Source of the DNA: an uncultured Eubacteriales bacterium
Lineage (GTDB): Bacteria; Bacillota; Clostridia; Oscillospirales; Acutalibacteraceae
DNA: 64,000 nucleotides
Reading direction: 5' to 3'
Assembly (NCBI GenBank): GCA_900314795.1
Contig: OMWP01000001.1
Coordinates: forward strand, 16,265 to 80,264
Of the stretch, positions 41,861 through 61,191 are shown in pieces; the first letter of the stretch is position 1; each line of letters opens with the position of its first letter. The notes beneath the pieces were generated by a model that worked only from the letters and a program-made list of their open reading frames with translations, was not told the origin of the DNA and made no database searches. The translations under genes and the position numbers were made by a program.

Positions 41861-41882
41861 CGGATAACAAAAACAGAATAAG

Positions 41883-42012
41883 CCTATATAGAGTGCGCGA
41901 GGGACAAGCCCGTTGACCGCACAGCAACCTGCCGACTCTCACGACGGTAAGGTGCTAATGCTTGACCGATAGGTGAACCCGGCGCTCTTTAGGATATATC
42001 ACAAAAGGAGTG
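41883..42012 (+). ncRNA. SAM-I/IV-like riboswitch
   Basis: P1 CCTAT/ATAGG, P2 GTGCG/CGCAC, core GAGGGA..GCCC..TGA, GCAACC, AAGGTGCTAA, GCTTGACCGAT; lacks the SAM-I P4. Confidence 0.75.
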
Positions 42013-42017
42013 TCATT

Positions 42018-42284
42018 ATGAAAACAATCAAAGAGTCAGCAAACATGGGTGAGCGTGTGTATGTTCACCTCAAGGATGAAGAAACAGCGATGAGGTTTCT
42101 GCGGCAGGCAGAATCGGAGGGATTCACCTTCGGCGATGGTGTCAGCCCCACAGATCGCCATTGGTCGGATCTCTATGCGGTCCATCCCGACAGTACGCTG
42201 AACTATGTCAGCACTAACGGACGCATACACTACGGCTCCGGCGCGGATGGGATCGTAAGGATAGAATACGCAGAATTATTGTAA
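42018..42284 (+). CDS. Hypothetical protein downstream of the SAM riboswitch
   Basis: AAGGAG RBS; 88 aa; no recognised motif. Confidence 0.7.
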   Translation: MKTIKESANMGERVYVHLKDEETAMRFLRQAESEGFTFGDGVSPTDRHWSDLYAVHPDSTLNYVSTNGRIHYGSGADGIVRIEYAELL

Positions 42285-42305: not shown

Positions 42306-42809
42306 ATGAGCAATCATGATGATTTCGTTGATGACTATATCGAATACAGAATCTTTGAAGAAAGCATGAAAAGATCAGGCGGAAAGCCGCCCAGACGTAA
42401 TAGTGGATGCTGTGGCTGCAGCACATGGGCGATCCTCATAGTGGCGATTCTGATTGTACTGGGCGTGTTATGCGCCTGCGGCAAGAGCAATAAAAGTTCA
42501 TACTCTGGCTCATACCGCAGTAATGTCAGCTCGTCATACAGCAATCGTTCTTATTCATCGAGTAGCAAAAGCACATCCAGCGACTACTCTTCCGGAAGAT
42601 CATCGATCCGCTCAACCGGCACCAACTCCGCGTACAGCAACACTTCCAAATCGAAAAGCAGTTCCAAAGCCAAGCGCACATCATCCGATCCGTATGATAC
42701 TAAGTCCTATGCTCATCCGAACGATTTATACTACGATTATCCTGATGACTTTTGGGATTATGAGGATGCGGAGGAATACTGGGAAGAACATCAGGATGTT
42801 TTAGTATAG
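42306..42809 (+). CDS. Hypothetical single-TM protein with a Ser-rich linker and acidic/Tyr-rich tail
   Basis: AGGAGG RBS; hydrophobic WAILIVAILIVLGVLCAC; low-complexity Ser region. Confidence 0.65.
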   Translation: MSNHDDFVDDYIEYRIFEESMKRSGGKPPRRNSGCCGCSTWAILIVAILIVLGVLCACGKSNKSSYSGSYRSNVSSSYSNRSYSSSSKSTSSDYSSGRSSIRSTGTNSAYSNTSKSKSSSKAKRTSSDPYDTKSYAHPNDLYYDYPDDFWDYEDAEEYWEEHQDVLV

Positions 42810-42921
42810 GAAAAAATGTAAAAAGAAATAGTTTCTCTTGATAATTTGCACAAAAAGGATTATATTATTATTGGTAAAGTATAGTAATTTGTCAATTGTT
42901 GTGTAAAAAAGGAGAAAAGCA

Positions 42922-43161
42922 ATGGCTCAGATGGATATAGAAAACATAAAACGGATTGAAAAAAATCGAAATACCATTCATGACAAGGTATATACGACAT
43001 ATACAATTTTTGAAAAAGCTGGAGAAAAGTATATTCAATTTGATACTTATGGCAGAATCGTCAGAGAGAATCCTGAAAAGATTAGTCAATCAATTCAGCT
43101 GGATCGAGAAACTGCCCAATATATCGTAAATCTTTTGATCAGAGAATTCGGATTAAAGTAA
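42922..43161 (+). CDS. Small hypothetical protein leading the MORC-Z1 operon
   Basis: AAGGAG RBS; YIQFDTYGR..ENPEKISQSIQLD; 12 bp upstream of the ATPase. Confidence 0.8.
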   Translation: MAQMDIENIKRIEKNRNTIHDKVYTTYTIFEKAGEKYIQFDTYGRIVRENPEKISQSIQLDRETAQYIVNLLIREFGLK

Positions 43162-43173
43162 CTGGAGTTTACT

Positions 43174-44640
43174 ATGAAATACGCCGATACACCGCCATAT
43201 GCACCAACACTGATGGAATCAACCCGCGCAATTGGTTATTCTATTGAGGCGGCTATTGCCGACATTATTGACAACAGCATTGCCGCAAACGCAAAAACTG
43301 TTAATATCGATTTCTTTCCAATCGGGGAAGCATATATCACTATTCTCGACGATGGGTTTGGTATGACTGAGCAAGAGCTGATTAATGCTATGAAATACGG
43401 AAGTCAAGATCCATTGCAAAAGAGAGATGTTATTGACTTAGGCCGATATGGATTAGGAATGAAAACTGCTTCCTTATCTCAGTGCAGAATACTTACGGTT
43501 ATCTCAAAGAAAAACGAAAATGTTTCAGCGGCACAATGGAATCTGGATCATATAAAAACCGCTGGAACATGGTCGCTTATTCTGTTGGACGAGAATGATA
43601 TTGCAGATTATCCTAATGTAAAAAAGTTACTGTTGCAGGATCAGGGAACCATTATCATATGGCAGGATCTCGATAAATTTGCTGTGGGAGAAAAAGATAT
43701 AGCTGAAGCGTTCAGAAAGAAAATGAACATTATCCGTGATCATCTGTCTTTAGTATTTCACAGATACCTAAGCGGTGAACAGGGAATTCAAAAGCTGGAC
43801 ATTCGCATGAACGAAAAAAGCATTCCCGTACATGATCCTTTCCTGGCAAAGAAAAGCACCCAACTCATGGATGAAGAGGTTATTACGATTCGCGGCGAAA
43901 AAGTTACTGTCAAACCATTTATTTTACCCCATGTCTCAAAACTGACAAAAGCAGAACTGAAAGCTCTGGGAGGTAAAGATGGATTAAGAAAGCAGCAAGG
44001 CTTTTATGTTTATCGCAATAAGCGCCTTTTGGTATGGGGTACGTGGTTTCGTTTGATGCGTCAAGGCGATTTATCAAAGCTTGCAAGAGTTCAAGTGGAT
44101 ATTCCCAACTCGCTTGATGATTTATGGACTTTAGACATCAAAAAATCCACTGCGACTCCGCCGGAGGATATTAAACAAAACTTATCTATTATCATAGGAA
44201 AGATCTCTGAAGGCAGCAAACGCACATGGACGTATCGCGGCAGAAAAGAAACCAGCGACAACGTCATACATATGTGGAATAGGATGATTTCCAGGAACGG
44301 AAACATCTATTATGAGATCAATCCAGATTACCCTATCATACAAGATTTATACACTGATTATCCTGAACTGCGTGAACGATTCGATATACTGCTGCAGCAA
44401 ATAGGATACACTCTCCCGCTGAACTCTCTGTATTTGGATCTGACAAATGACGAGAAGATCGAGAATGACAGCGAAAAAGATACAAAGCAGATTATCAGTA
44501 TGGTAAAAGCTATTCTTTCTGTAAGGGACGAACATACCTCTGTTGAGGAGCTACTGGAAAACCTCAAATTGGCAGAACCGTTTTGCAGCTATGCCGAAGA
44601 GATTGACGAAGCAAAAGTCCGAGGTGAATTTGATGACTGA
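43174..44640 (+). CDS. MORC/MutL-like GHKL ATPase (HATPase_c_3)
   Basis: ADIIDNSIAA (motif I), DDGFGM, GRYGLGMKTAS, GTIIIW. Confidence 0.9.
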   Translation: MKYADTPPYAPTLMESTRAIGYSIEAAIADIIDNSIAANAKTVNIDFFPIGEAYITILDDGFGMTEQELINAMKYGSQDPLQKRDVIDLGRYGLGMKTASLSQCRILTVISKKNENVSAAQWNLDHIKTAGTWSLILLDENDIADYPNVKKLLLQDQGTIIIWQDLDKFAVGEKDIAEAFRKKMNIIRDHLSLVFHRYLSGEQGIQKLDIRMNEKSIPVHDPFLAKKSTQLMDEEVITIRGEKVTVKPFILPHVSKLTKAELKALGGKDGLRKQQGFYVYRNKRLLVWGTWFRLMRQGDLSKLARVQVDIPNSLDDLWTLDIKKSTATPPEDIKQNLSIIIGKISEGSKRTWTYRGRKETSDNVIHMWNRMISRNGNIYYEINPDYPIIQDLYTDYPELRERFDILLQQIGYTLPLNSLYLDLTNDEKIENDSEKDTKQIISMVKAILSVRDEHTSVEELLENLKLAEPFCSYAEEIDEAKVRGEFDD

Positions 44641-47449
44641 CAATATGATTTTTTTGGCGGATACAGTCAGAGCGTTTTTCCTTAGGCAGGAAGAACTGCC
44701 CACGCTTGATGACATATCTAAGAAAGCAGAAGAAATGAGGACAGCTTTATCTGCACTATATCCGATCTCAGATGAAGAATTCATCAAAGTTAGGTCAGAA
44801 TTGTGGAATGACATTATCCACACAATTAACGGCAACGCCATTACTCTGCGCGGACGTGATTCTAACCACAAATCTTGGTACTACAATAGTGACAGTGATC
44901 ATTTTTATTGGAATCGGTATAAAACCTATCTGAGACAGGTGAAGCACTGGTCGGTTGATGTTGTAAACAAAATCGATCAAACTACCAATACCGTTATGGA
45001 CGATTTGGGAGATCCAAAAGACGATGCACCTTTCCAGAGAAGAGGTCTGTTGCTGGGCGATGTGCAATCCGGCAAAACAGGAACCTATACTGCTATATGC
45101 AACAAAGCATCAGATGCCGGTTATAGAGTCATTATTATCTTGGCAGGCATGATGGAGAACTTACGTGTTCAAACTCAATCGCGTCTTGACTCAGAATTTG
45201 TCGGCATTGAGAGTAAGCATACACTGGATAAAAAAGCTGACAACGAAATACGTAATCTTCCTGTAGGCGTTGGAAAAATCCCTCCTATTCAACCTGAAAA
45301 AAGGGTTGCGTGTTTTACTTCTGTTGCAACTGACTTCAACAAGAATACACTTCGTGCTCTCGGCTTGAGTCTTCGAACTCTAAATGGTACTGCTCTGTTT
45401 GTTGTAAAGAAAAATAAGAGTGTTCTGAATAATCTATACAAATGGTTAAGGGACAACAACGCCAACCACGAAACAGGACTTGTCGATTTACCTCTATTAT
45501 TAATAGATGATGAGGCGGATAATGCATCTGTAAACACCAACTCTGAAGAAAAGGATCCGACCGCAATCAATCGCGCTATTCGCAATATTCTGAACTGCTT
45601 CAAAAAAGCATCTTATTTAGGAATTACTGCGACACCGTTCGCAAATATCTTTATTGATCCTGAAGCGGAACACGATGAAGCAGCAAGAGATTTGTTCCCA
45701 AAGGATTTCCTGACAGTATTGCCTACACCTGAAAAGTATATCGGCGCATCAAAGATATTCGGCTATGGCGATGCTGATAATTGGGATAATAAAGGTGCAG
45801 ATTTGCGAGTCGAAGGTGAATACGGAGATTCTGTTATTCCTATCAAAAATGAAGAGCAACAGGATTTTTATGTTTTCAAGCATAAAAAAGAACTGGCAAA
45901 TGATTTGGTAGATATACCGCCCAGTCTAAAAGAGGCAGTTCGCTATTTTATTCTTGCAACAGCTGTTTCCGATTCCAGACTCGATGAAAAAGAGCATCGT
46001 TCCATGTTGGTGAACGTCAGCCGTTATACTATGGTACAAAATGTTACTGCAGATTTAATTGATGATTATTTGACTAAATTCAAATCTGATTTGGAAAACT
46101 ATTCGAATTTGGATATTGACAAAGCAATGCAAATCTCAGGAATAAAGGCCTTGTATTCCACTTGGGAAAAATATGATTTATCCAGCGTGTCTGCACACAA
46201 CTGGGAAGATATGTTAAAGAACTATCTAAACAAAGCAGTAAAAAGAATCAGCGTTCGTGCAGTAAACCAAAAACACGGCGCAGCTACATTGAACTATGGT
46301 GATGAAGAAGGACTAAGGGTGATCGCGGTAGGCGGCAACAGCTTGTCAAGAGGTCTCACACTGGAAGGGTTGATTGTCAGCTATTTTTATCGCAACACCA
46401 TAATGTATGATACACTGCTGCAAATGGGCAGATGGTTCGGATATCGTTTTGGCTATGAGGACCTATTTAAAATATGGATAGCAGAAGACGCTGTAGATTG
46501 GTACGGCTATATTTCTGATGCGGTGAACGAACTGAAAGATGAACTCGACGATATGAAGCGTCAGCACTTAACACCAAAGGATTTTGGTCTCAAAGTCAGG
46601 CGCGCTCCGGGAACGCTTCTCGTTACTGCCAGAAATAAAATGAGAACTGCAACGCCTGTAAACAGACCGATTACTGTTTCGGGCAGAATGCTGGAAACCC
46701 CCAGACTAAAAGCAGATCCGGATGCGCTGGAAGACAATCGATCCTTATGCTTGTCTTTTATAAAGTCGCTTTCTGCCGATAAGAGTATTAGTTATTTGTT
46801 TGATCGATATACCAGTGCACATATTTGGAAGAAAGTTCCGAAGAGTATGATTATCGAAGTTGTCAGGAGTTTTAACTCTCACCCTTGGAACTTAAACTTC
46901 CAGCCTATTGCTCTGGCAGATTATATCGATAAAGATTCTGATACCCTCGAATACTGGGATGTTGCTATTCCTGAGCCTAGGAGAAGTACAAATAGAACTA
47001 TAACGATTGAACTGTCGGAAGGGGAAATATCAGTCCATCCGGAGATTCGAAACATTAAAAAGGAAACCGAAGTCAAAAATATGTTGAAGATTAGTGATCG
47101 GCATGTTCGAGTCGGAGCCGGCGGTTGTTCAAAAATCGGGTTAGATCAAACAGAGATAGATGAAATACGTGAGCGTTGTAAACAGGATAATAAACGAATC
47201 AATGATAAAGAGTACTTGAATACAAAGAAGTATCTTGGAAAACAGCGGCATCCGATTGCTCTTATTCATGTCGTGGAAAAACGCGCCGACAATCAAGATG
47301 AAACCATTCCGCGCTATGTATACGCACTTGGATTAGGTTTTCCTGAAGATGGCATCGAGAGAACTGCAAACTATATGGTAAATATTAACGAACTGAAAAA
47401 CTGGGTAGATATAGTAGACGAGGATGATGACGATGATTACGCTGAATGA
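44633..47449 (+). CDS. Z1-domain SF2 helicase-like / endonuclease protein
   Basis: GDVQSGKT, IDDEADNAS, YLGITATPFANI, LSRGLTLEGL, DTLLQMGRWFGYR. Confidence 0.9.
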   Translation: MTDNMIFLADTVRAFFLRQEELPTLDDISKKAEEMRTALSALYPISDEEFIKVRSELWNDIIHTINGNAITLRGRDSNHKSWYYNSDSDHFYWNRYKTYLRQVKHWSVDVVNKIDQTTNTVMDDLGDPKDDAPFQRRGLLLGDVQSGKTGTYTAICNKASDAGYRVIIILAGMMENLRVQTQSRLDSEFVGIESKHTLDKKADNEIRNLPVGVGKIPPIQPEKRVACFTSVATDFNKNTLRALGLSLRTLNGTALFVVKKNKSVLNNLYKWLRDNNANHETGLVDLPLLLIDDEADNASVNTNSEEKDPTAINRAIRNILNCFKKASYLGITATPFANIFIDPEAEHDEAARDLFPKDFLTVLPTPEKYIGASKIFGYGDADNWDNKGADLRVEGEYGDSVIPIKNEEQQDFYVFKHKKELANDLVDIPPSLKEAVRYFILATAVSDSRLDEKEHRSMLVNVSRYTMVQNVTADLIDDYLTKFKSDLENYSNLDIDKAMQISGIKALYSTWEKYDLSSVSAHNWEDMLKNYLNKAVKRISVRAVNQKHGAATLNYGDEEGLRVIAVGGNSLSRGLTLEGLIVSYFYRNTIMYDTLLQMGRWFGYRFGYEDLFKIWIAEDAVDWYGYISDAVNELKDELDDMKRQHLTPKDFGLKVRRAPGTLLVTARNKMRTATPVNRPITVSGRMLETPRLKADPDALEDNRSLCLSFIKSLSADKSISYLFDRYTSAHIWKKVPKSMIIEVVRSFNSHPWNLNFQPIALADYIDKDSDTLEYWDVAIPEPRRSTNRTITIELSEGEISVHPEIRNIKKETEVKNMLKISDRHVRVGAGGCSKIGLDQTEIDEIRERCKQDNKRINDKEYLNTKKYLGKQRHPIALIHVVEKRADNQDETIPRYVYALGLGFPEDGIERTANYMVNINELKNWVDIVDEDDDDDYAE

Positions 47450-48353
47450 TTTAAAGAAAAAATGGGATTCAACTACTCCGTATTCCAATGGCTTTTTGCA
47501 GATTTCAGAAGAGCATCCTTTATCTGTCCATGTTGGATATGAAGGCGACCAGCGTTGTTTTGTTATACTTGATACTGGAAGATGGGAGAGTATCGAATCT
47601 TCCAAGGCTGTCGGCGCTGAATGCATCGAATACTCAAAAGGCAAATATGGATTAAAGTTTTTATTGAAGTATCCCTCACTGGATGAGCTGTTTATTAAAC
47701 TGTGTTGGGATTTGCTTGATTTTTCAAAATCCGAATCCAATCCTGTGCAGGCAGTATTAGATAGATATAGGAGCTGGTTGCTGCTGCTTCAAAAACAGCG
47801 GACAGGTCTGCTGTCTTTTTCGAGACAAAAAGGACTGATAGCAGAATTGATGATTTTTATTGATCAATGTGAGTATCGAGAAGTTGATGAAGTATTGTCT
47901 GCCTGGGTTGGACCCGAGGGATGTGACCAAGATTTTGTTTTTGATAATTGCTGGTATGAAATCAAGGCAACTGCAAAAGCATCCGACAGTGTTCGGATAT
48001 CATCCCTTCAACAGCTTGATAGAGCGGAATACGGCGAACTGATTGTGCTTTTTATGGATAAAGTATCCTCGGACGGAACAGGGGCTTTTTCGCTTCCTGA
48101 TGTCGTAGAGGATGTACTGCACATCCTTCCAAATCAGGCGCTGAAAGATAAGTTGGAATGCAAATTGGCAATGTACGGATACTATTATCGTGACTCGCAG
48201 AATTACCGCGATATATACTATGATCTCTCTGAGAGACGAGATTATAGAGTTGAGGATGGTTTTCCTATACTTTCCGTTCACAATGTGCCGCACGAAATTA
48301 TCGACGCTAAATACAGTATCGATTTAGCCTCCATAGATTGTTTCAAAAAATAG
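47433..48353 (+). CDS. PD-(D/E)XK motif protein (DUF4420-like)
   Basis: WVGPEGCDQDF..YEIKAT..ISSLQQL; position between Z1 and AIPR. Confidence 0.85.
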   Translation: MITLNDLKKKWDSTTPYSNGFLQISEEHPLSVHVGYEGDQRCFVILDTGRWESIESSKAVGAECIEYSKGKYGLKFLLKYPSLDELFIKLCWDLLDFSKSESNPVQAVLDRYRSWLLLLQKQRTGLLSFSRQKGLIAELMIFIDQCEYREVDEVLSAWVGPEGCDQDFVFDNCWYEIKATAKASDSVRISSLQQLDRAEYGELIVLFMDKVSSDGTGAFSLPDVVEDVLHILPNQALKDKLECKLAMYGYYYRDSQNYRDIYYDLSERRDYRVEDGFPILSVHNVPHEIIDAKYSIDLASIDCFKK

Positions 48354-48363
48354 GAGATCAGTA

Positions 48364-50442
48364 ATGGATGTTCGCGATTTTCAAAAAGATTTTTTAGAAG
48401 AAGTCAAATCATCGGCAGCAATCGATGGTGCCGGTTCAAACGCCGCTTTTGTTAATGTAGCGACTAATTACTTAATCAATGCAGAAGTATTGAGCGATTT
48501 TACGCCTGCCTTTTATGTGGGAACAGGAAAAAACAATCGCAAGCTGCGCATAGACGGATATGTTCTGGATGAGTTTGATGTAACACTTAATCTTATTATT
48601 TCTGATTATACGGGTGATGAAAATCGCGATACGCTTATTAAATCTCAAGCTATAGCTCTATTTGAAAGAATCAATTATTTTCTTGATGAGGTCTATACCG
48701 GAGCTCTGAGAAGGACAGTTGAACCAAGTACACCGGTTTTTGACCTGATTCAGTTGTTGCTAGTCAACAAAGAAAGGATACGGAAATTCAGGTACATTCT
48801 GTTAACAGACGGCATTATGAGCAGCCGTATTTCTGAATTAGATGTCCATTCTTACAACAATATCCCAATCGAATATCAGATCTGGGATATTGAACGAATC
48901 TATAAAGTTTGCTTTTCCGACTTAGGAAGGCAGGATATTGAAATAGACTTCAAATCGCTCAGCGGAGGGAAAGGAATACCGTGTCTTGAAACTACCACTG
49001 CAAACAGCGAGTATTACCAAAGCTATCTATGTATTGTTCCCGGTGAAATGCTGGCAGATCTTTATGATTCCTATGGAAGCCAATTGCTGGAAGGTAATGT
49101 ACGTTCCTTCTTGTCAACCAAAGTTGCGGTCAACAAAAAGATTAGGGAAACTATCCTGAGAATCCCGCAAAACTTTTTTGCCTATAATAATGGCGTTTCT
49201 GCAACTGTTATGGACTTAAAAGTTGAAAAAGGAGAAGATGGACGATATATTACTTATGCAAAGGACTTTCAGATAATTAACGGCGGTCAAACAACAGCAT
49301 CCCTATCAAACACACGGTTTAAGGATCATGCTGATTTGAGTTCAATTTATGTACAGATGAAACTCACAAAAGTTGATTCCGATCCGGATAAAGCAAGTGA
49401 ACTAATTAGGAATATTTCTCGTTCTTCGAATAGTCAGAATAAGGTTAGTGATGCAGATTTCTTTGCAACGCATCCTTTTCATATTCGGATGGAACAGTTG
49501 TCCCGCAGATTGTTCGCACCTGCATCCGGCGGTGCTCAGTATGAAACCAAATGGTTTTATGAGCGCGCACGCGGTCAGTACCTTCAGGCACAAATGCGCA
49601 TGACAAAATCTCAGAAGGATAAGTTTGCTGCGCAAAACCCAAAAAATCAGGTTATCACTAAGACAGATTTAGCCAAATATCGTGATACTTGGGCGGAAAT
49701 GCCTCATATCGTAAGTAAAGGAGCACAGACAAATTTCATGAAGTTTGCCGCATTAGTTGATGACCAGTGGCAAAAATCGGATATTGTTTTTAACGAGAAG
49801 TATTTCAAAGAATCTGTTGCATTAGCTATCTTATTCAAGCATACTGAATGGATAGTATCTCATCAGCCATGGTATGAAAAAGGTTATCGCGCAAATATTG
49901 TTACATATTCAATCGCTCTTTTACATCGAATGATTCGAACTCAGTTTAAAGATATGAATTTGGATCTTCAATCAATATGGACGCGTCAACAAGTTCCAGA
50001 TGCTGTAACAAATGAGTTGGTTCGTATTACAAAGTTTGTTTTTAATTCGATTACCGATCCCGGCCGCGCAACAATAAACGTAACACAATGGTGTAAACGG
50101 GATGCTTGTTGGGATTCAATAAAAAAATGCTCTATTCGTTTATCACAAAACATTCAGCGGTGCTTAACATCAAAGGAAGATAATAAAGCAGCTGAAAAAG
50201 AAGCAAAGAGTGATCAAAAGATAGCTTCTGATATGCAAGCTCAGGCAAAAGTGATAGAACTTGGTGCTGAATACTGGAAGTCGGTTGAATCCTTTGTGAA
50301 ATTAAAAAAGGTTAACGCTTCTCCCGATCAGCTTAAGGCTCTAAAATATGCAGTCAAGATTCCTGTACAGATTCCCAGTGCATATCAGAGCGTACAGCTT
50401 ATGAGGCTTCTTGAAGAAGCGAAGGCAAACGGATATAAATAA
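48364..50442 (+). CDS. AIPR-family protein (abortive infection phage resistance; ParB-like fold)
   Basis: LLEGNVRSFL, FFAYNNG, QIINGGQTTASL, SNSQNKV, WFYERARGQY. Confidence 0.92.
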   Translation: MDVRDFQKDFLEEVKSSAAIDGAGSNAAFVNVATNYLINAEVLSDFTPAFYVGTGKNNRKLRIDGYVLDEFDVTLNLIISDYTGDENRDTLIKSQAIALFERINYFLDEVYTGALRRTVEPSTPVFDLIQLLLVNKERIRKFRYILLTDGIMSSRISELDVHSYNNIPIEYQIWDIERIYKVCFSDLGRQDIEIDFKSLSGGKGIPCLETTTANSEYYQSYLCIVPGEMLADLYDSYGSQLLEGNVRSFLSTKVAVNKKIRETILRIPQNFFAYNNGVSATVMDLKVEKGEDGRYITYAKDFQIINGGQTTASLSNTRFKDHADLSSIYVQMKLTKVDSDPDKASELIRNISRSSNSQNKVSDADFFATHPFHIRMEQLSRRLFAPASGGAQYETKWFYERARGQYLQAQMRMTKSQKDKFAAQNPKNQVITKTDLAKYRDTWAEMPHIVSKGAQTNFMKFAALVDDQWQKSDIVFNEKYFKESVALAILFKHTEWIVSHQPWYEKGYRANIVTYSIALLHRMIRTQFKDMNLDLQSIWTRQQVPDAVTNELVRITKFVFNSITDPGRATINVTQWCKRDACWDSIKKCSIRLSQNIQRCLTSKEDNKAAEKEAKSDQKIASDMQAQAKVIELGAEYWKSVESFVKLKKVNASPDQLKALKYAVKIPVQIPSAYQSVQLMRLLEEAKANGYK

Positions 50443-50457
50443 AAGGGAGCTATTACA

Positions 50458-52062
50458 ATGGAAAAGTATTCAGTCGTAGACTTATTTGCCGGCGCCGGCG
50501 GATTGAGTCTGGGCTTTTTACAAACAGGAAGATTTGATATAAAAGTTGCATTTGAGAATAATCCAGATATGCAGGCTACATACAAAAAAAATCACCCAGG
50601 CGTTGAAGTGTTGGGTGATGTTTGCCAAGCGGATTACTCAGCGATGAAAGATAAATATGGAGATATTGACGTTGTGATAGGCGGACCTCCCTGTCAAGGA
50701 TTCTCCAATGCGAATCGGCAAAAGAATCATGCGGTCAGCATGAACAACATGCTGGTTAAACAATATATTCGCGCGATATTAGAATTGAATCCCAAAGCGT
50801 TTGTTATGGAAAATGTAAGCATGCTGAAATCTGATGTGCATCGTTTTTACATGACAAGAAGCGATATAGACTGTATCAGAAAATACAAAATACCGACAAA
50901 AGAAACCAGATTGCTGTTGCTTGAAAAAAAGTATCTGTTTGACGGTGCTGCAGACATCGTTTCTTCTCCATCAAAAATTGCTTCTTATCTTTGGCCGGAA
51001 GAGCACTACCAGTTGCTGAATATAATTTACAAAGCGACAAATAATGTCAAAAAGCTTAGAAAGGCATTAGTAAAGCATAAATCAGCATTATTGAAAATTG
51101 CTGACAAGCATATTAGAGATTCAAGTGATTATATCCTTTCACATGACAGCGCAGCGTTCTCTGAAGTTAAAGAATACTTCTTTACCGACGTTGCAGATGA
51201 AGATGTTTATTCTGCACAGACGATTCGTGAAAGCATTGAGTGCTCTGTTATGATTCAAAGAATGCTTGGCAAGGCACAAGAATTATTTTCCAATGATATT
51301 ATTGTTGAGGATTACAGTGAAACAGATGATCTTACGGCAGTGATAAAATCGTTTGCTGTATATGATTATCTGACTTCTATTCTTCAATCCGAAGATAACG
51401 GCTATGTCATTGATCATAAAGTATTATGTGCAGCTGATTATGGCGCCCCGCAGAAACGCAACAGATTTGTAGTAATGGGCGTTAAAAAAGAACTTGCTTC
51501 CAAGATTGCTTTGCCAAGCCCAGAATTAGATGAAGACGAATACAAAACCGTGCGAGATGCAATTGAAGATATTGAAGATGTGGAACCGGTCACTGAGGTT
51601 TCAGATGATATCGGAATTGTGCTGAATGAAAAGGATGTTGATGGTCTGGCTGGATCATTGAGAGATTCGGAACGATTGTATAATCATGTGATAACAAAGA
51701 CGACCGCGACCGCTATGGAAAGATTCAAGGCAATCAAGCAAGGAGAGAATTTCCATTCACTAGATGATGCCCTGAAAACTAATACATATACTGATGTGTC
51801 CAGAACACAGAATACGATTTATTTAAGATTGAATTATGATGAACCCAGCGGTACCGTTGTTAATGTAAGAAAATCCATGTGGATACATCCTGTAAAAAAC
51901 CGGGCTGTCAGCATAAGAGAAGCAGCCAGATTACAGACTTTCCCTGATAGTTTCATCTTCTGTGGAACAAAGGATAAACAGTATCAGCAGGTCGGCAATG
52001 CGGTTCCTCCTATTATGGCAAAGGCAATAGCAAATAAGCTTTGCCGATACTTGTCAAAATAA
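50458..52062 (+). CDS. dcm: DNA (cytosine-5)-methyltransferase with a large internal insertion
   Basis: DLFAGAGG (I), GGPPCQGFS (IV), MENV (VI), PQKRNR (VIII), REAARLQTFPD (IX), QVGNAVPP (X). Confidence 0.95.
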   Translation: MEKYSVVDLFAGAGGLSLGFLQTGRFDIKVAFENNPDMQATYKKNHPGVEVLGDVCQADYSAMKDKYGDIDVVIGGPPCQGFSNANRQKNHAVSMNNMLVKQYIRAILELNPKAFVMENVSMLKSDVHRFYMTRSDIDCIRKYKIPTKETRLLLLEKKYLFDGAADIVSSPSKIASYLWPEEHYQLLNIIYKATNNVKKLRKALVKHKSALLKIADKHIRDSSDYILSHDSAAFSEVKEYFFTDVADEDVYSAQTIRESIECSVMIQRMLGKAQELFSNDIIVEDYSETDDLTAVIKSFAVYDYLTSILQSEDNGYVIDHKVLCAADYGAPQKRNRFVVMGVKKELASKIALPSPELDEDEYKTVRDAIEDIEDVEPVTEVSDDIGIVLNEKDVDGLAGSLRDSERLYNHVITKTTATAMERFKAIKQGENFHSLDDALKTNTYTDVSRTQNTIYLRLNYDEPSGTVVNVRKSMWIHPVKNRAVSIREAARLQTFPDSFIFCGTKDKQYQQVGNAVPPIMAKAIANKLCRYLSK

Positions 52063-52105
52063 AGTTGAGAACAAATAACTATCATATTCTGAAACGAGGC
52101 AGTTC

Positions 52106-52516
52106 ATGGATAACCATGATAAAAAGACCAGAAGCTATAATATGTCTATGATCAGAAGCAAAAACACCAAACCGGAGGAACTGGTAAGGAAGTATCTGTT
52201 TTCCCATGGATTCAGATACCGAAAGAACGTCCGAACGCTACCAGGTTCTCCGGATATCGTTTTGCCTAAATATAAGACCGTCATTTTTGTGAACGGATGT
52301 TTTTGGCATAAACATGACTGTCCACGCTTTGTTTGGCCGAAAAGCAATACAGAGTACTGGAATAAAAAAATTGAAAACAATGTAAAACGTGATACAGATA
52401 ATACAGCATTACTGAAACAAGCCGGCTGGAAGGTTATCGTTGTATGGGAATGTGAGCTAAAAAAGGACATAGCAGCTGATACATTGGATTCACTGGTAAA
52501 AAGAATAAGAGTGTAA
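52106..52516 (+). CDS. vsr: Very short patch repair endonuclease
   Basis: NMSMIRSKNTKPE, GSPDIV, FVNGCFWHKHDC, NVKRD, VWEC. Confidence 0.95.
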   Translation: MDNHDKKTRSYNMSMIRSKNTKPEELVRKYLFSHGFRYRKNVRTLPGSPDIVLPKYKTVIFVNGCFWHKHDCPRFVWPKSNTEYWNKKIENNVKRDTDNTALLKQAGWKVIVVWECELKKDIAADTLDSLVKRIRV

Positions 52517-53363: not shown

Positions 53364-53747
53364 ATGATCGAAGTAGTAGCCGCGCTGATATGGGATGGGG
53401 ATCGGTTCCTGATCTGTCAGCGGCCGGAGCATAAGGCTCGCGGATTGTTATGGGAATATGTCGGCGGGAAGGTCGAACCGGGTGAAACAAAGCAAGGAGC
53501 CCTCATTCGCGAGTGCCGTGAGGAGCTTGGCGTTATCGTCTCGGTTGGTGATGTGTTCATGGATGTGGTACACGAATACCCCGACATCACCGTTCACCTG
53601 ACCCTGTACCACGCTTCTATCGCGGAGGTTACGATCCGCTTGCTGGAGCATAACGCGATTGCATGGATTACCCCTGCTGAGATACCAGACTACGCTTTTT
53701 GTCCTGCAGATAAGGAGATCAACGAGAGGATAGCTATAGAATTATGA
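53364..53747 (+). CDS. MutT-like NUDIX hydrolase
   Basis: Nudix box GGKVEPGETKQGALIRECREELG; FCPAD. Confidence 0.92.
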   Translation: MIEVVAALIWDGDRFLICQRPEHKARGLLWEYVGGKVEPGETKQGALIRECREELGVIVSVGDVFMDVVHEYPDITVHLTLYHASIAEVTIRLLEHNAIAWITPAEIPDYAFCPADKEINERIAIEL

Positions 53748-58170: not shown

Positions 58171-59565
58171 TCACTCATACAGGAGGATATTGTCTTTTTC
58201 ATCAGCCAACTGTTTCAGCTTTTCACTATAGCCATTGAAACTGAAGAATACGAAGTGATTGATCCTGTTCTGTTTTTTCCAATCGACCTTTTCGATCTTC
58301 TCCAGCAGATGATAGTATATGTCCACGTCCATCGGGTCGTTGGTGAATTTACACTCGCCGAATATCACATTATCGGAGTTTTCGTCTACGGCAACGATAT
58401 CGATCTCAGTATCGCTCCTGTCCCACCATCTGCCGATGCGCGTTGGAATAAAATCCCACTTTCCTTCGGCAACCAGTGCGGGCATATACTCCCTCCGACA
58501 AATATCCTCATAGACGAAAGCGGCGTGATTCGCGACAAACCCCTGCTGTATCTTCTTCATGACAAAGTCGGTGTTGTCCATTTCGATGTATGACCGGTAG
58601 GGATAGATGAACCGGAACCAGAACCGAATGTAATTGTCCTTGATCTTGTATAAACCCATCTTGCTCTTTTCGGGCTTATCCTCGGTGGCGGGAACTTCGC
58701 GCTCGAGAATATCCAGATCGATCAGCGTTTTCAGATACTTCGGCAGATTGGTCTGCGCTACATTCAGCGCCGAGGCGATCTCGCTTTGCTTCTCTTTGCC
58801 CGAGGCGATGGTCTTGATAATGGAGAAGTAGCTGCCAACATCCTTCACTTCCTTTTCGAGCAGGAAGGAAGGCTCCTCGTAAAGATAACTCTCCTTCGAC
58901 ATCACGCACCGCTCAATAGCGGTATAGACGTCGGTGTACGGCTCAAAGGTCTCGATATACTTCGGTACGCCTCCGGTGACCGCGTAGCATTCGATAAGTT
59001 GTCTTTCGCTGATATCCGAGAAGAACTGCGGATAATACCGGAAGGCGATCTGCTTCATCTTGATCTGACCTGTCCGTCTGCCGTAGAGGGGGCTGTCGTA
59101 GGACAGCGTCTGGGAGTACATCATGTTCACCAACGATCCGCAGAGGATCAGCATGATGTTTTTGTCAGCGAGCATAGTATCCCATATCTTTTGCAGGACG
59201 GATACAAAGGCGCGGTTCGCTTTACCGATGTACTGAAACTCATCCATGATGATCAGCGTTCTGCTGTGGGCGCCATCATTGACGATATAAGAGAATAACT
59301 CCTCCCAGCTGTCGATCTGAGCTTGGGCTAACAGGGGATTGCCGATATACTCCGCGACCTTTGCTTTGAAGGCGTTTCTGTTCTCGGCTTCGCTTTCTTC
59401 CGTAGCGAGGAAGAACAGTGCGTCCTTATCTTTGATGAACTCCTTAATCAGCGAGGTCTTGCCGATCCTTCTCCGACCGTAGATCACGATGAACGAGGCG
59501 GAATCCTTTTGAAACTCCGCTTCAAGAAAAGCTTTTTCCTTTGCTCTGTTGACGAACTCTTTCAT
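58171..59565 (-). CDS. Archaeal-type AAA ATPase with DUF234-like C-terminal region
   Basis: YGRRRIGKTSL, IMDEFQY, LILCGS, GGVPKY, DNYIRFWFRF, GRWW..EIDIV..GECK. Confidence 0.88.
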   Translation of the reverse strand: MKEFVNRAKEKAFLEAEFQKDSASFIVIYGRRRIGKTSLIKEFIKDKDALFFLATEESEAENRNAFKAKVAEYIGNPLLAQAQIDSWEELFSYIVNDGAHSRTLIIMDEFQYIGKANRAFVSVLQKIWDTMLADKNIMLILCGSLVNMMYSQTLSYDSPLYGRRTGQIKMKQIAFRYYPQFFSDISERQLIECYAVTGGVPKYIETFEPYTDVYTAIERCVMSKESYLYEEPSFLLEKEVKDVGSYFSIIKTIASGKEKQSEIASALNVAQTNLPKYLKTLIDLDILEREVPATEDKPEKSKMGLYKIKDNYIRFWFRFIYPYRSYIEMDNTDFVMKKIQQGFVANHAAFVYEDICRREYMPALVAEGKWDFIPTRIGRWWDRSDTEIDIVAVDENSDNVIFGECKFTNDPMDVDIYYHLLEKIEKVDWKKQNRINHFVFFSFNGYSEKLKQLADEKDNILLYE

Positions 59566-60117: not shown

Positions 60118-61191
60118 TTACTTTAACCGATATACTCTGTTCCGGTTGGCGCCTTCGGCGATGATGATACCATCCTGTATCAGTTCACTGAGGTAATCCC
60201 TCGTCCTGGACGGCTGTAACCCGATCGCAGCGGCAACCTGAGAAGCTTTGACGGTTCCGTTGTCTTTGATAAAGGCGATAATTGCTTGACGGTTCCGTAC
60301 GTTTATCGCCGATTTTTTATCGCCGATTTTTTCTTTATCGCCGATTTTTTCAGGTGGCTGCATTTCGGTATCAATCAGCAAATACCGATTTTTAAGTTCA
60401 TGATGTTCTCCTAGCAGCAGATTCCGGAAGAAGTGTTCCAGATAGCTTTTATCCTCGACAATCCCCTTTTGGATATCGGAGTAGTTCGCACGAACAAGGG
60501 CGTTTCGAAAATACCATGAGTTCTCAGCAAACAGCGTATTGTTCACCTCAAAGCCCAGCGAGCGGAGATATTTGATGCTGAACACCGCCGTCGATCTGGT
60601 GTTGCCTTCGCCGAAGGGATGGATCTGCCACAGGTTCGAAACAAACTCCGTGATATGGCGGATGCTCTTGTCGATTCCGAGACCGCTGTAATCAAAGTGT
60701 CTCTCTGCATCAAAATCATAGTTCAGCGTATCGCGGATCATGTCGGAACCGGCATAAACCACCGACTTGCCTTTGAGCACCCACTCTTTTTTTGAGATGT
60801 TGTAATCGCGGATATTTCCGGCGAATTTGTAGATACCCTCAAAGAGTCTGCGATGAATCGCGATGAACTGTTCAGGCGAGAAAACAAAGGCGTCTTCCGA
60901 GAGAATCTGAGCAATGCGGGCGGATACCTTATCTGCTTCTTCGGTACGGTTCTCCGCGTCAATGCGCGCGGTTTTGCTCTCATAGTAGCTGTGGATCAGC
61001 TCGTTCGCTTCTTTCAGCGTGATGTCACCGTCGATGTTCTTTTTCGCGGTCTCAATCAGGTATTCGGATGGCTTTAGGCCGTCCACATCCTGCAGACCGA
61101 TCGCCGTCTGCCAGATATAGCCTTTCTGCTGTTTTTCAGGCTCGCTCTGTCGGATATATTCATCAAAATCAAAGTTGACAGGATCGCTCAT
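60118..61191 (-). CDS. Fic-family protein with VbhA-like N-terminus and C-terminal wHTH
   Basis: HPFGEGNTRST Fic motif; AIGLQDVDGLKPSEY N-terminus; GANRNRVYR C-terminus. Confidence 0.88.
   Translation of the reverse strand: MSDPVNFDFDEYIRQSEPEKQQKGYIWQTAIGLQDVDGLKPSEYLIETAKKNIDGDITLKEANELIHSYYESKTARIDAENRTEEADKVSARIAQILSEDAFVFSPEQFIAIHRRLFEGIYKFAGNIRDYNISKKEWVLKGKSVVYAGSDMIRDTLNYDFDAERHFDYSGLGIDKSIRHITEFVSNLWQIHPFGEGNTRSTAVFSIKYLRSLGFEVNNTLFAENSWYFRNALVRANYSDIQKGIVEDKSYLEHFFRNLLLGEHHELKNRYLLIDTEMQPPEKIGDKEKIGDKKSAINVRNRQAIIAFIKDNGTVKASQVAAAIGLQPSRTRDYLSELIQDGIIIAEGANRNRVYRLK

Follow-up and report, generated by a model that had tools for sequence, protein, structure and literature searches.

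A methylase-linked MORC-Z1-DUF4420-AIPR-Dcm-Vsr operon related to Mza in an uncultured Acutalibacteraceae bacterium

We analyzed a 64,000-nucleotide stretch of DNA (the window) from an uncultured Eubacteriales bacterium of the family Acutalibacteraceae (assembly GCA_900314795.1, contig OMWP01000001.1, positions 16,265 to 80,264 of the forward strand), in which seven co-directional open reading frames (ORFs) occupy positions 42922-52516 of the plus strand. They encode, in order, a small protein of 79 amino acids (aa), referred to here as s79, a MORC-like GHKL ATPase, a Z1 helicase-like protein, a DUF4420 protein of the PD-(D/E)XK nuclease type, an AIPR protein, a C5 cytosine DNA methyltransferase (Dcm) and a Vsr repair endonuclease (Table 1). 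An ORF check recovered all seven at the coordinates of the original prediction, and Pfam bore out every domain call that it had made for them. The operon is a plain member of a known family of methylase-linked MORC-Z1-nuclease-AIPR-Dcm-Vsr gene sets, and represents the common form of that family, not a rare variant.

The seven genes form a single compact unit, with spacings in gene order of 12, -8, -17, 10, 15 and 43 nucleotides (nt). The long ORF that contains Z1 spans 44543-47449. Because its 30 N-terminal residues are unconserved among homologues, and because the ATG at 44633 has GAGGTG in front of it and overlaps the stop codon of the GHKL gene in ATGACTGA, we reset the start to this ATG. 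The DUF4420 ORF was listed as 47424-48353 (309 aa); since the homologues are 306 aa long, translation probably starts at 47433. The promoter-like site upstream of s79 is a consensus match only, and is also kept in the close relative L001 (related loci carry L or P numbers throughout). Terminator-like matches within the operon were no more numerous than expected from shuffled sequence, and an alignment of five upstream regions revealed no shared operator 5' of s79. The GC content of the operon is 0.39-0.41, compared with 0.52-0.60 in the upstream chromosomal genes.

Table 1 Features of the operon and of its surroundings in the window, with the matches obtained for each
Feature	Length	Position	Strand	Match or remark
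s79, facultative small protein	79 aa	42922..43161	+	Pfam, PADLOC and NCBIfam: no match
MORC-like GHKL ATPase (MzaB-like)	488 aa	43174..44640	+	HATPase_c_3 8e-35
Z1 superfamily 2 helicase/translocase (MzaC-like)	938 aa	44633..47449	+	Z1 6e-78, ResIII 2e-5
DUF4420 PD-(D/E)XK nuclease (MzaD-like)	306 aa	47433..48353	+	DUF4420 5e-56
AIPR protein (MzaE-like)	692 aa	48364..50442	+	AIPR_N 4e-40, AIPR 2e-98
C5 cytosine DNA methyltransferase (Dcm)	534 aa	50458..52062	+	DNA_methylase 1e-62
Vsr very-short-patch repair endonuclease	136 aa	52106..52516	+	Vsr 2e-34
Promoter-like site TTGATA-17-TATATT		42838..42866	+	5' of s79; consensus scan, 10/12 matches
SAM-I riboswitch		41881..41975	+	RF00162, 58.3 bits
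Small ORF after the riboswitch		41973..42284
Small ORF after the riboswitch		42306..42809
Stand-alone SRA domain protein (5-methylcytosine-binding)	164 aa	52833..53327	+	316 nt past Vsr
NUDIX_4 hydrolase		53364..53747	+	PADLOC PDC-S07 8e-42
Protein with BnzB match	977 aa	55063..57996	+	PADLOC BnzB, residues 26-388, 6.5e-49
ATPase_2/DUF234 protein		58171..59565	-	PADLOC PDC-S27
Fic-HTH protein		60118..61191	-	PADLOC PDC-S72 1e-143

Judged over 25-68 unique homologues per protein, all the catalytic motifs expected of the operon's enzymes are intact. The GHKL ATPase carries an N-box DIIDNS (D30, N34), a G1 motif DDGFG and a G2 motif GRYGLG, all conserved among homologues, and among solved relatives MORC4 and MORC3 come closest to it. 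Alignment with these two proteins places Asp30 (ADIIDN) on the catalytic Glu of MORC (AELLDN / AELIDN); 95% or more of 56 unique family members keep this Asp. This replacement of the catalytic Glu by Asp in the ATPase of the family is one of two modest new points of our analysis. The N-box of the family reads ADIIDNS, with Ala in place of the Asp that follows in DNAxD.

The Z1 protein has a Walker A motif GDVQSGKT together with IDDEAD, ITATP and QMGRWFGYR, conserved in 52 unique homologues. In the DUF4420 protein D170, E179 and K181 (309-aa ORF numbering) do not vary among 39 homologues. AIPR contains three long invariant motifs (residues 241-258, 301-316 and 351-366); a sequence search found no relative of it in the PDB, and a fold search gave weak matches to PD-(D/E)XK domains (E about 0.5). 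Dcm has motifs I (FAGAGG), IV (PPCQ, with C79), VI (ENV), VIII (QKRNR), IX and X (GNAVPP). Its match to the DNA_methylase family comes in two stretches, residues 5-128 and 259-530. Residues 129-258, unmatched by Pfam, are the least conserved part of the protein, and about 210 aa separate motifs VI and VIII. The best matches to solved relatives span the catalytic core only, so the sequence specificity of Dcm is not derivable from them. In Vsr the motifs PDIV and FVNGCFWH are present, and the protein scores 153 bits against TIGR00632 (cut-off 98).

The original prediction had recognized the ATPase-Z1-nuclease-AIPR core as that of the Mza anti-phage system and regarded the locus as a variant without an MzaA-like gene. 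The homology is real: the PADLOC models give matches of 1.5e-80 for MzaB, 1.3e-120 for MzaC, 8e-17 for MzaD and 5e-75 for MzaE. None of the corresponding NCBIfam equivalog cut-offs (NF041932-NF041935) was reached, with bit scores of 320 against 850 for MzaB, 523 against 1500 for MzaC, 92 against 420 for MzaD and 335 against 1050 for MzaE. MzaA is indeed missing: throughout the genome its model PDLC02203 picks up ordinary sigma factors only, by way of its sigma part, and none of them adjoins the operon. In control genomes, too, this model gives matches (10 of 14). Based on the PADLOC matches, the missed cut-offs and the absence of MzaA, we regard the locus as a relative of Mza and not as Mza proper. 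The four core proteins are homologous to MzaB-E over nearly their full length, stand in the same order and probably do the same work, an ATP-driven nuclease attack on phage DNA. The operon differs from Mza in having no MzaA, in scoring below the equivalog cut-offs and in its obligatory C5 methylase, with or without Vsr. What does not hold is the idea of an unusual Mza variant, since this methylase-linked form is common and is already described in PMC2292703 and PMC9523054.

In Iyer, Abhiman and Aravind 2008 (PMC2292703), prokaryotic MORC/paraMORC operons are described with superfamily II helicases, nucleases of the restriction endonuclease fold, AIPR, DNA methylases (mostly cytosine) and Vsr, and are interpreted there as restriction-modification systems. 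Miller et al. 2022 (PMC9523054), who came upon the set again, give a core of Z1, a PD-(D/E)XK DUF protein and a cytosine methyltransferase, and a 'Type II' putative defence system in which this core is joined by AIPR, by a MORC protein and by a putative regulator, the last as an association and not as a core gene. The paper also reports about 20% identity to mzaBCDE with mzaA mostly absent, and attributes mzaABCDE to Gao et al. 2020. According to a preprint (10.1101/2022.06.16.496414), the mzaABCDE genes of E. coli confer protection against T4 and its cytosine variants, more weakly against glucosylated DNA; growth arrest was not seen, and purified MzaD cuts phage DNA in vitro. In the literature searched, no study of the mechanism of the methylase-linked form came to light.

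The window shares with the systems of Iyer et al. and with Miller's Type II the whole set of Z1, DUF4420, C5 methylase, AIPR and MORC-like ATPase, often with Vsr. The core trio of Z1, DUF4420 and C5 methylase is co-directional within 7.5 kb and is accompanied by AIPR and the MORC-like GHKL protein, and the gene set and its order are kept across unrelated hosts. Its status is likewise the same, namely that of a predicted, widespread and laterally mobile system of the restriction-modification kind. The difference lies in the small transcriptional regulator, which is not found in the window; the non-HTH (helix-turn-helix) s79 is there instead of an upstream small HTH regulator. A second comparison is with Class 2 DISARM (helicase, DUF1998, PLD nuclease and C5 methylase), which has the same logic of a helicase-nuclease module paired with a methylase that marks self with 5-methylcytosine (5mC), although motor, clamp and nuclease belong here to unrelated families. 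Among the seven proteins PADLOC found no match to DrmA, DrmB (DUF1998) or DrmC (PLD), and the only Drm match is that of Dcm to the DrmMII models. As an instance of a gene set that is widespread and was first described in 2008, the operon is good but ordinary.

To follow the gene set through other genomes, 83 related loci were gathered from species genomes and metagenomes with the DUF4420 protein as anchor, and each gene was counted only in loci with sufficient flanking sequence. Z1 is present in 69 of 69 loci, the GHKL ATPase in 62 of 62 and AIPR in 70 of 70. Dcm follows directly after AIPR in 63 of 65, with its start 15-35 nt past the end of AIPR, and the order GHKL-Z1-DUF4420-AIPR-Dcm is essentially invariant. 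Vsr occurs in 32 of 62 loci, and s79 in 6 of 49 by tblastn and in 7 loci by hidden Markov model (HMM). GHKL-Z1-DUF4420-AIPR-Dcm is a fixed five-gene core over many lineages and phyla, and Vsr and s79 are optional additions. The proposed co-conservation of dcm and vsr with the four core genes thus stands for dcm and fails for vsr.

Patchiness is apparent on a wider scale. In an even sample of the phylum DUF4420 was found in 13 of 401 genomes. The gene set extends to other families of the phylum: five of the 12 other DUF4420 neighbourhoods in this sample have the same gene order, with Vsr present or absent, and the remaining ones have the methylase upstream, or Z1 and DUF4420 alone, with or without a C5 methylase. 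By annotation, a conjugative plasmid of the actinobacterium Pseudarthrobacter (NC_015147) carries in a row a dcm gene and genes for ATP-binding, Z1 domain-containing, PD-(D/E)XK motif and AIPR family proteins. Most relatives have a small HTH gene 5' of GHKL, which falls into three unrelated clusters, one of them HTH_26 by Pfam; there is no HTH gene 5' of the operon in the window, and s79 stands in its place.

A helicase of the Schlafen-group-3/DUF2075 type (650-690 aa, PADLOC PDC-S41 at 1e-262, with an N-terminal PD-(D/E)XK-like motif) follows directly after Dcm or Vsr in 23 related loci (for example L002, 9913-11994, and L017, 8964-10964). The window is without this common optional eighth gene of its relatives. 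A three-gene module of HD-CE, ORC/Cdc6-like ATPase and HFX_2341_N-like genes is inserted between Dcm and Vsr in L136 (4218-8152) and L137 (4645-8579), and a pair related to it lies beside the operon on the opposite strand in L001 (14727-17612, minus strand).

Taken together, the operon is likely to be a horizontally acquired, methylase-linked relative of Mza that works as an ATP-dependent restriction-modification-type system, with restriction blocked by 5mC and Vsr repairing deamination damage. Dcm would methylate a fixed short sequence in host DNA, and this mark would stand for 'self'. On DNA without the mark the Z1 motor, the MORC-like GHKL clamp, AIPR and the DUF4420 nuclease would assemble into an engine that translocates along the DNA or clamps it with ATP, Z1 serving as the translocase and GHKL as an ATP-gated clamp, and the PD-(D/E)XK site of DUF4420 would make the cut. 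Vsr would act outside defence, by repairing the T:G mismatches that arise from deamination of 5mC and so making the carriage of 5mC cheaper. s79 might be an accessory nucleic-acid-binding subunit or a regulator, in place of the small HTH regulators of the relatives. We infer the discrimination of self from non-self by 5mC from the obligatory linkage of Dcm, because by the established logic of restriction-modification a host-genome-modifying methylase in the operon is compatible only with methylation-blocked restriction. This interpretation is further supported by the domain identities, the intact motifs and the co-conservation of the genes in the related loci, in other genomes of the phylum and on the actinobacterial plasmid, by the anti-phage activity of the related mzaABCDE, by the tight spacing with one promoter-like site upstream and no terminator signal above chance, by the patchy mobile distribution, low GC and neighbours that match defence-candidate models, and by the fact that the sole Vsr of the genome adjoins this Dcm (the C5-methylase family is matched by four loci of the genome).

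The following points weigh against it. Asp30 in place of the catalytic Glu suggests that the GHKL protein may turn over ATP slowly or in a regulatory role. No methylase is needed by canonical Mza, and the engine may thus sense something other than missing methylation. Finally, the divergence of the proteins among the related loci does not fit a simple model in which nuclease and methylase read the same sequence: measured against the window, identity is lowest for DUF4420 among the core proteins (35-50%) and highest for AIPR (53-75%) and Dcm (57-77%), and the conservation profile of the Dcm homologues has no hypervariable stretch where a target-recognition domain is expected.

The second of these points bears on the alternative that Dcm and Vsr form an orphan methylase-repair cassette of their own, next to an Mza-like engine that is self-sufficient and senses infection in some other way. 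Canonical mzaABCDE defends without a methylase (PMC9523054; 10.1101/2022.06.16.496414), and in some relatives dcm is at the opposite end of the operon or is replaced by a different, shorter C5 methylase. Because its position and type vary in this way, the methylase looks like an exchangeable module. Against this, Dcm keeps the same place, about 15-20 nt past AIPR, in 63 of 65 related loci, at 57-77% identity. In most of the distant loci, too, Z1 and DUF4420 come with a C5 methylase, and PMC9523054 counts it among three core genes. We consider this alternative unlikely.

A fast-evolving nuclease, a methylase that looks fixed in specificity and a canonical Mza without methylase keep alive another possibility, in which the engine itself reads 5mC, or the methylase is its DNA reader, so that there is no sequence-specific restriction subunit and DNA that is poor in 5mC or stalls the methylase is attacked. 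A hypervariable target-recognition region is seen in no subunit, the methylase changes less rapidly than the nuclease, which is the fastest-evolving protein, and the extra stretch of about 130-170 aa between motifs VI and VIII could dock Dcm to the complex. The idea is itself inferred, though, and either AIPR or the C-terminal region of Z1, both of them large, could hold a conserved sequence reader. We would give it a low probability.

The presence of Vsr in the window also raises the question of whether the operon is a machine for repair or epigenetic maintenance that uses its MutL-like ATPase, helicase, nuclease and Vsr on lesions at methylated cytosines, comparable to MutL-UvrD-Vsr of E. 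coli, and is not a defence system at all. A parallel of MORC/paraMORC operons with the MutL-Vsr and MutL-UvrD interplay is drawn in PMC2292703. Against this, Vsr is absent from half of the related loci, the operon has defence-candidate genes around it in an island of low GC, its distribution is patchy and includes mobile elements with relaxase and MobC genes, and the homologous Mza is anti-phage. Such a role is thus very improbable, and we retain restriction blocked by 5mC as the preferred interpretation.

The second modest new point concerns s79. Its homologues form 448 clusters, nearly all of 78-79 aa and of about 70-80% identity; because so many clusters conserve this length, we take s79 to be a real gene. 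The original prediction had treated it as a fixed leader of the operon, and it proves to be facultative, coded first or last, in about one locus in seven. It precedes GHKL in the window, L001, L029 and the P0121 contexts (the latter beside relaxase and MobC genes), follows directly after Dcm in P0207, overlaps the end of Vsr by 14 nt in P0127 and P0165, and lies about 0.8 kb past Vsr in L012, L014 and L018. In the P0165 contexts, where HD-CE, ORC/Cdc6-like and HFX_2341_N-like genes stand between Dcm and Vsr, s79 remains the last gene. All contexts sampled place it within the methylase-linked system, and it never occurs together with the HTH_26-type regulator in the sampled loci, which are not phylogenetically independent.

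An AlphaFold (AF2) model of s79 (pLDDT 79) has two long strands, a short strand and a C-terminal helix. In a Foldseek search the best PDB matches were BPSL1147, Sub1, Borrelia Pur-alpha, human PC4 and a PC4-like protein of T5, with E of 0.05-0.6, which suggests, as a weak lead, a PC4/Pur-alpha-like fold. Based on these contexts and on the model, we put forward the tentative and rather doubtful proposal that s79 is a hitherto undescribed, system-specific seventh subunit, a PC4/Pur-alpha-like single-stranded DNA binder that replaces the HTH controller and is coded first or last, often with translational coupling. If so, it could control expression of the operon or pass DNA unwound by Z1 to the nuclease. 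We found no description of an s79-like protein in the available portions of PMC2292703 or PMC9523054.

The family is widespread, and its combination of a bacterial MORC-type ATPase with a 5mC methylase echoes the eukaryotic biology of MORC proteins and DNA methylation. As an intact and compact copy with all catalytic residues, the present operon is a suitable candidate for cloning, although alone it opens no new question; s79 and the substitution of Asp for Glu that is conserved in the ATPase provide modest new handles on the system.

The operon is in a low-GC defence island of about 20 kb, on or beside a mobile element. Chromosomal genes (metA-type HTS, proS, phosphoglucomutase, tspO and queT) extend up to about 36.4 kb and are followed by a ParB-like gene, TnpV and a 701-aa protein without assignment. 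We found no convincing flanking repeats at the ends of the island. In two related loci tRNA genes flank the system (L071, 1898-1971; L029, 11889-11972), which fits islands integrated at tRNA genes.

Between this flank and the operon is an S-adenosylmethionine (SAM) riboswitch followed by two small ORFs, one of which encodes a Ser-rich membrane protein. No terminator was seen between the riboswitch genes and s79. In L001, the closest relative, the operon is likewise preceded by this riboswitch (50.9 bits) and the two genes. Read-through from the riboswitch, if it occurs, would link a system that consumes SAM to a sensor of SAM. As a general regulator of the system the riboswitch was rejected, since it recurs in L001 and is absent from six other loci.

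Downstream of Vsr, the closest relatives of the SRA protein are mostly SRA-HNH or SRA-zinc-finger proteins of 300-480 aa, which are methyl-directed restriction enzymes. The copy in the window has no nuclease part, and would thereby be able to coexist with an active C5 methylase. We rejected the SRA gene as an eighth component of the system based on its absence from the related loci (0 of 56), the gap that separates it from Vsr and its mostly SRA-HNH relatives. We also rejected the possibility that it is a remnant of the Schlafen-like helicase, as the two share no similarity.

The adjacent NUDIX_4 hydrolase, for which the nearest named NCBIfam model is a NudG-type pyrimidine (d)NTP diphosphatase, recurs a few kilobases downstream of the operon in L002 (11991-12377) and L017 (11700-12086), in both with 73-76% identity, and in L044, L045, L083 and L071. 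E. coli NudG accepts 5-methyl-dCTP, and by analogy this hydrolase could serve to sanitize the nucleotide pool in a host whose DNA bears 5mC. Flavodoxin and SDR genes follow the hydrolase, and beyond them lie the 977-aa protein with its BnzB match and, on the minus strand, the ATPase_2/DUF234 and Fic-HTH genes (Table 1).

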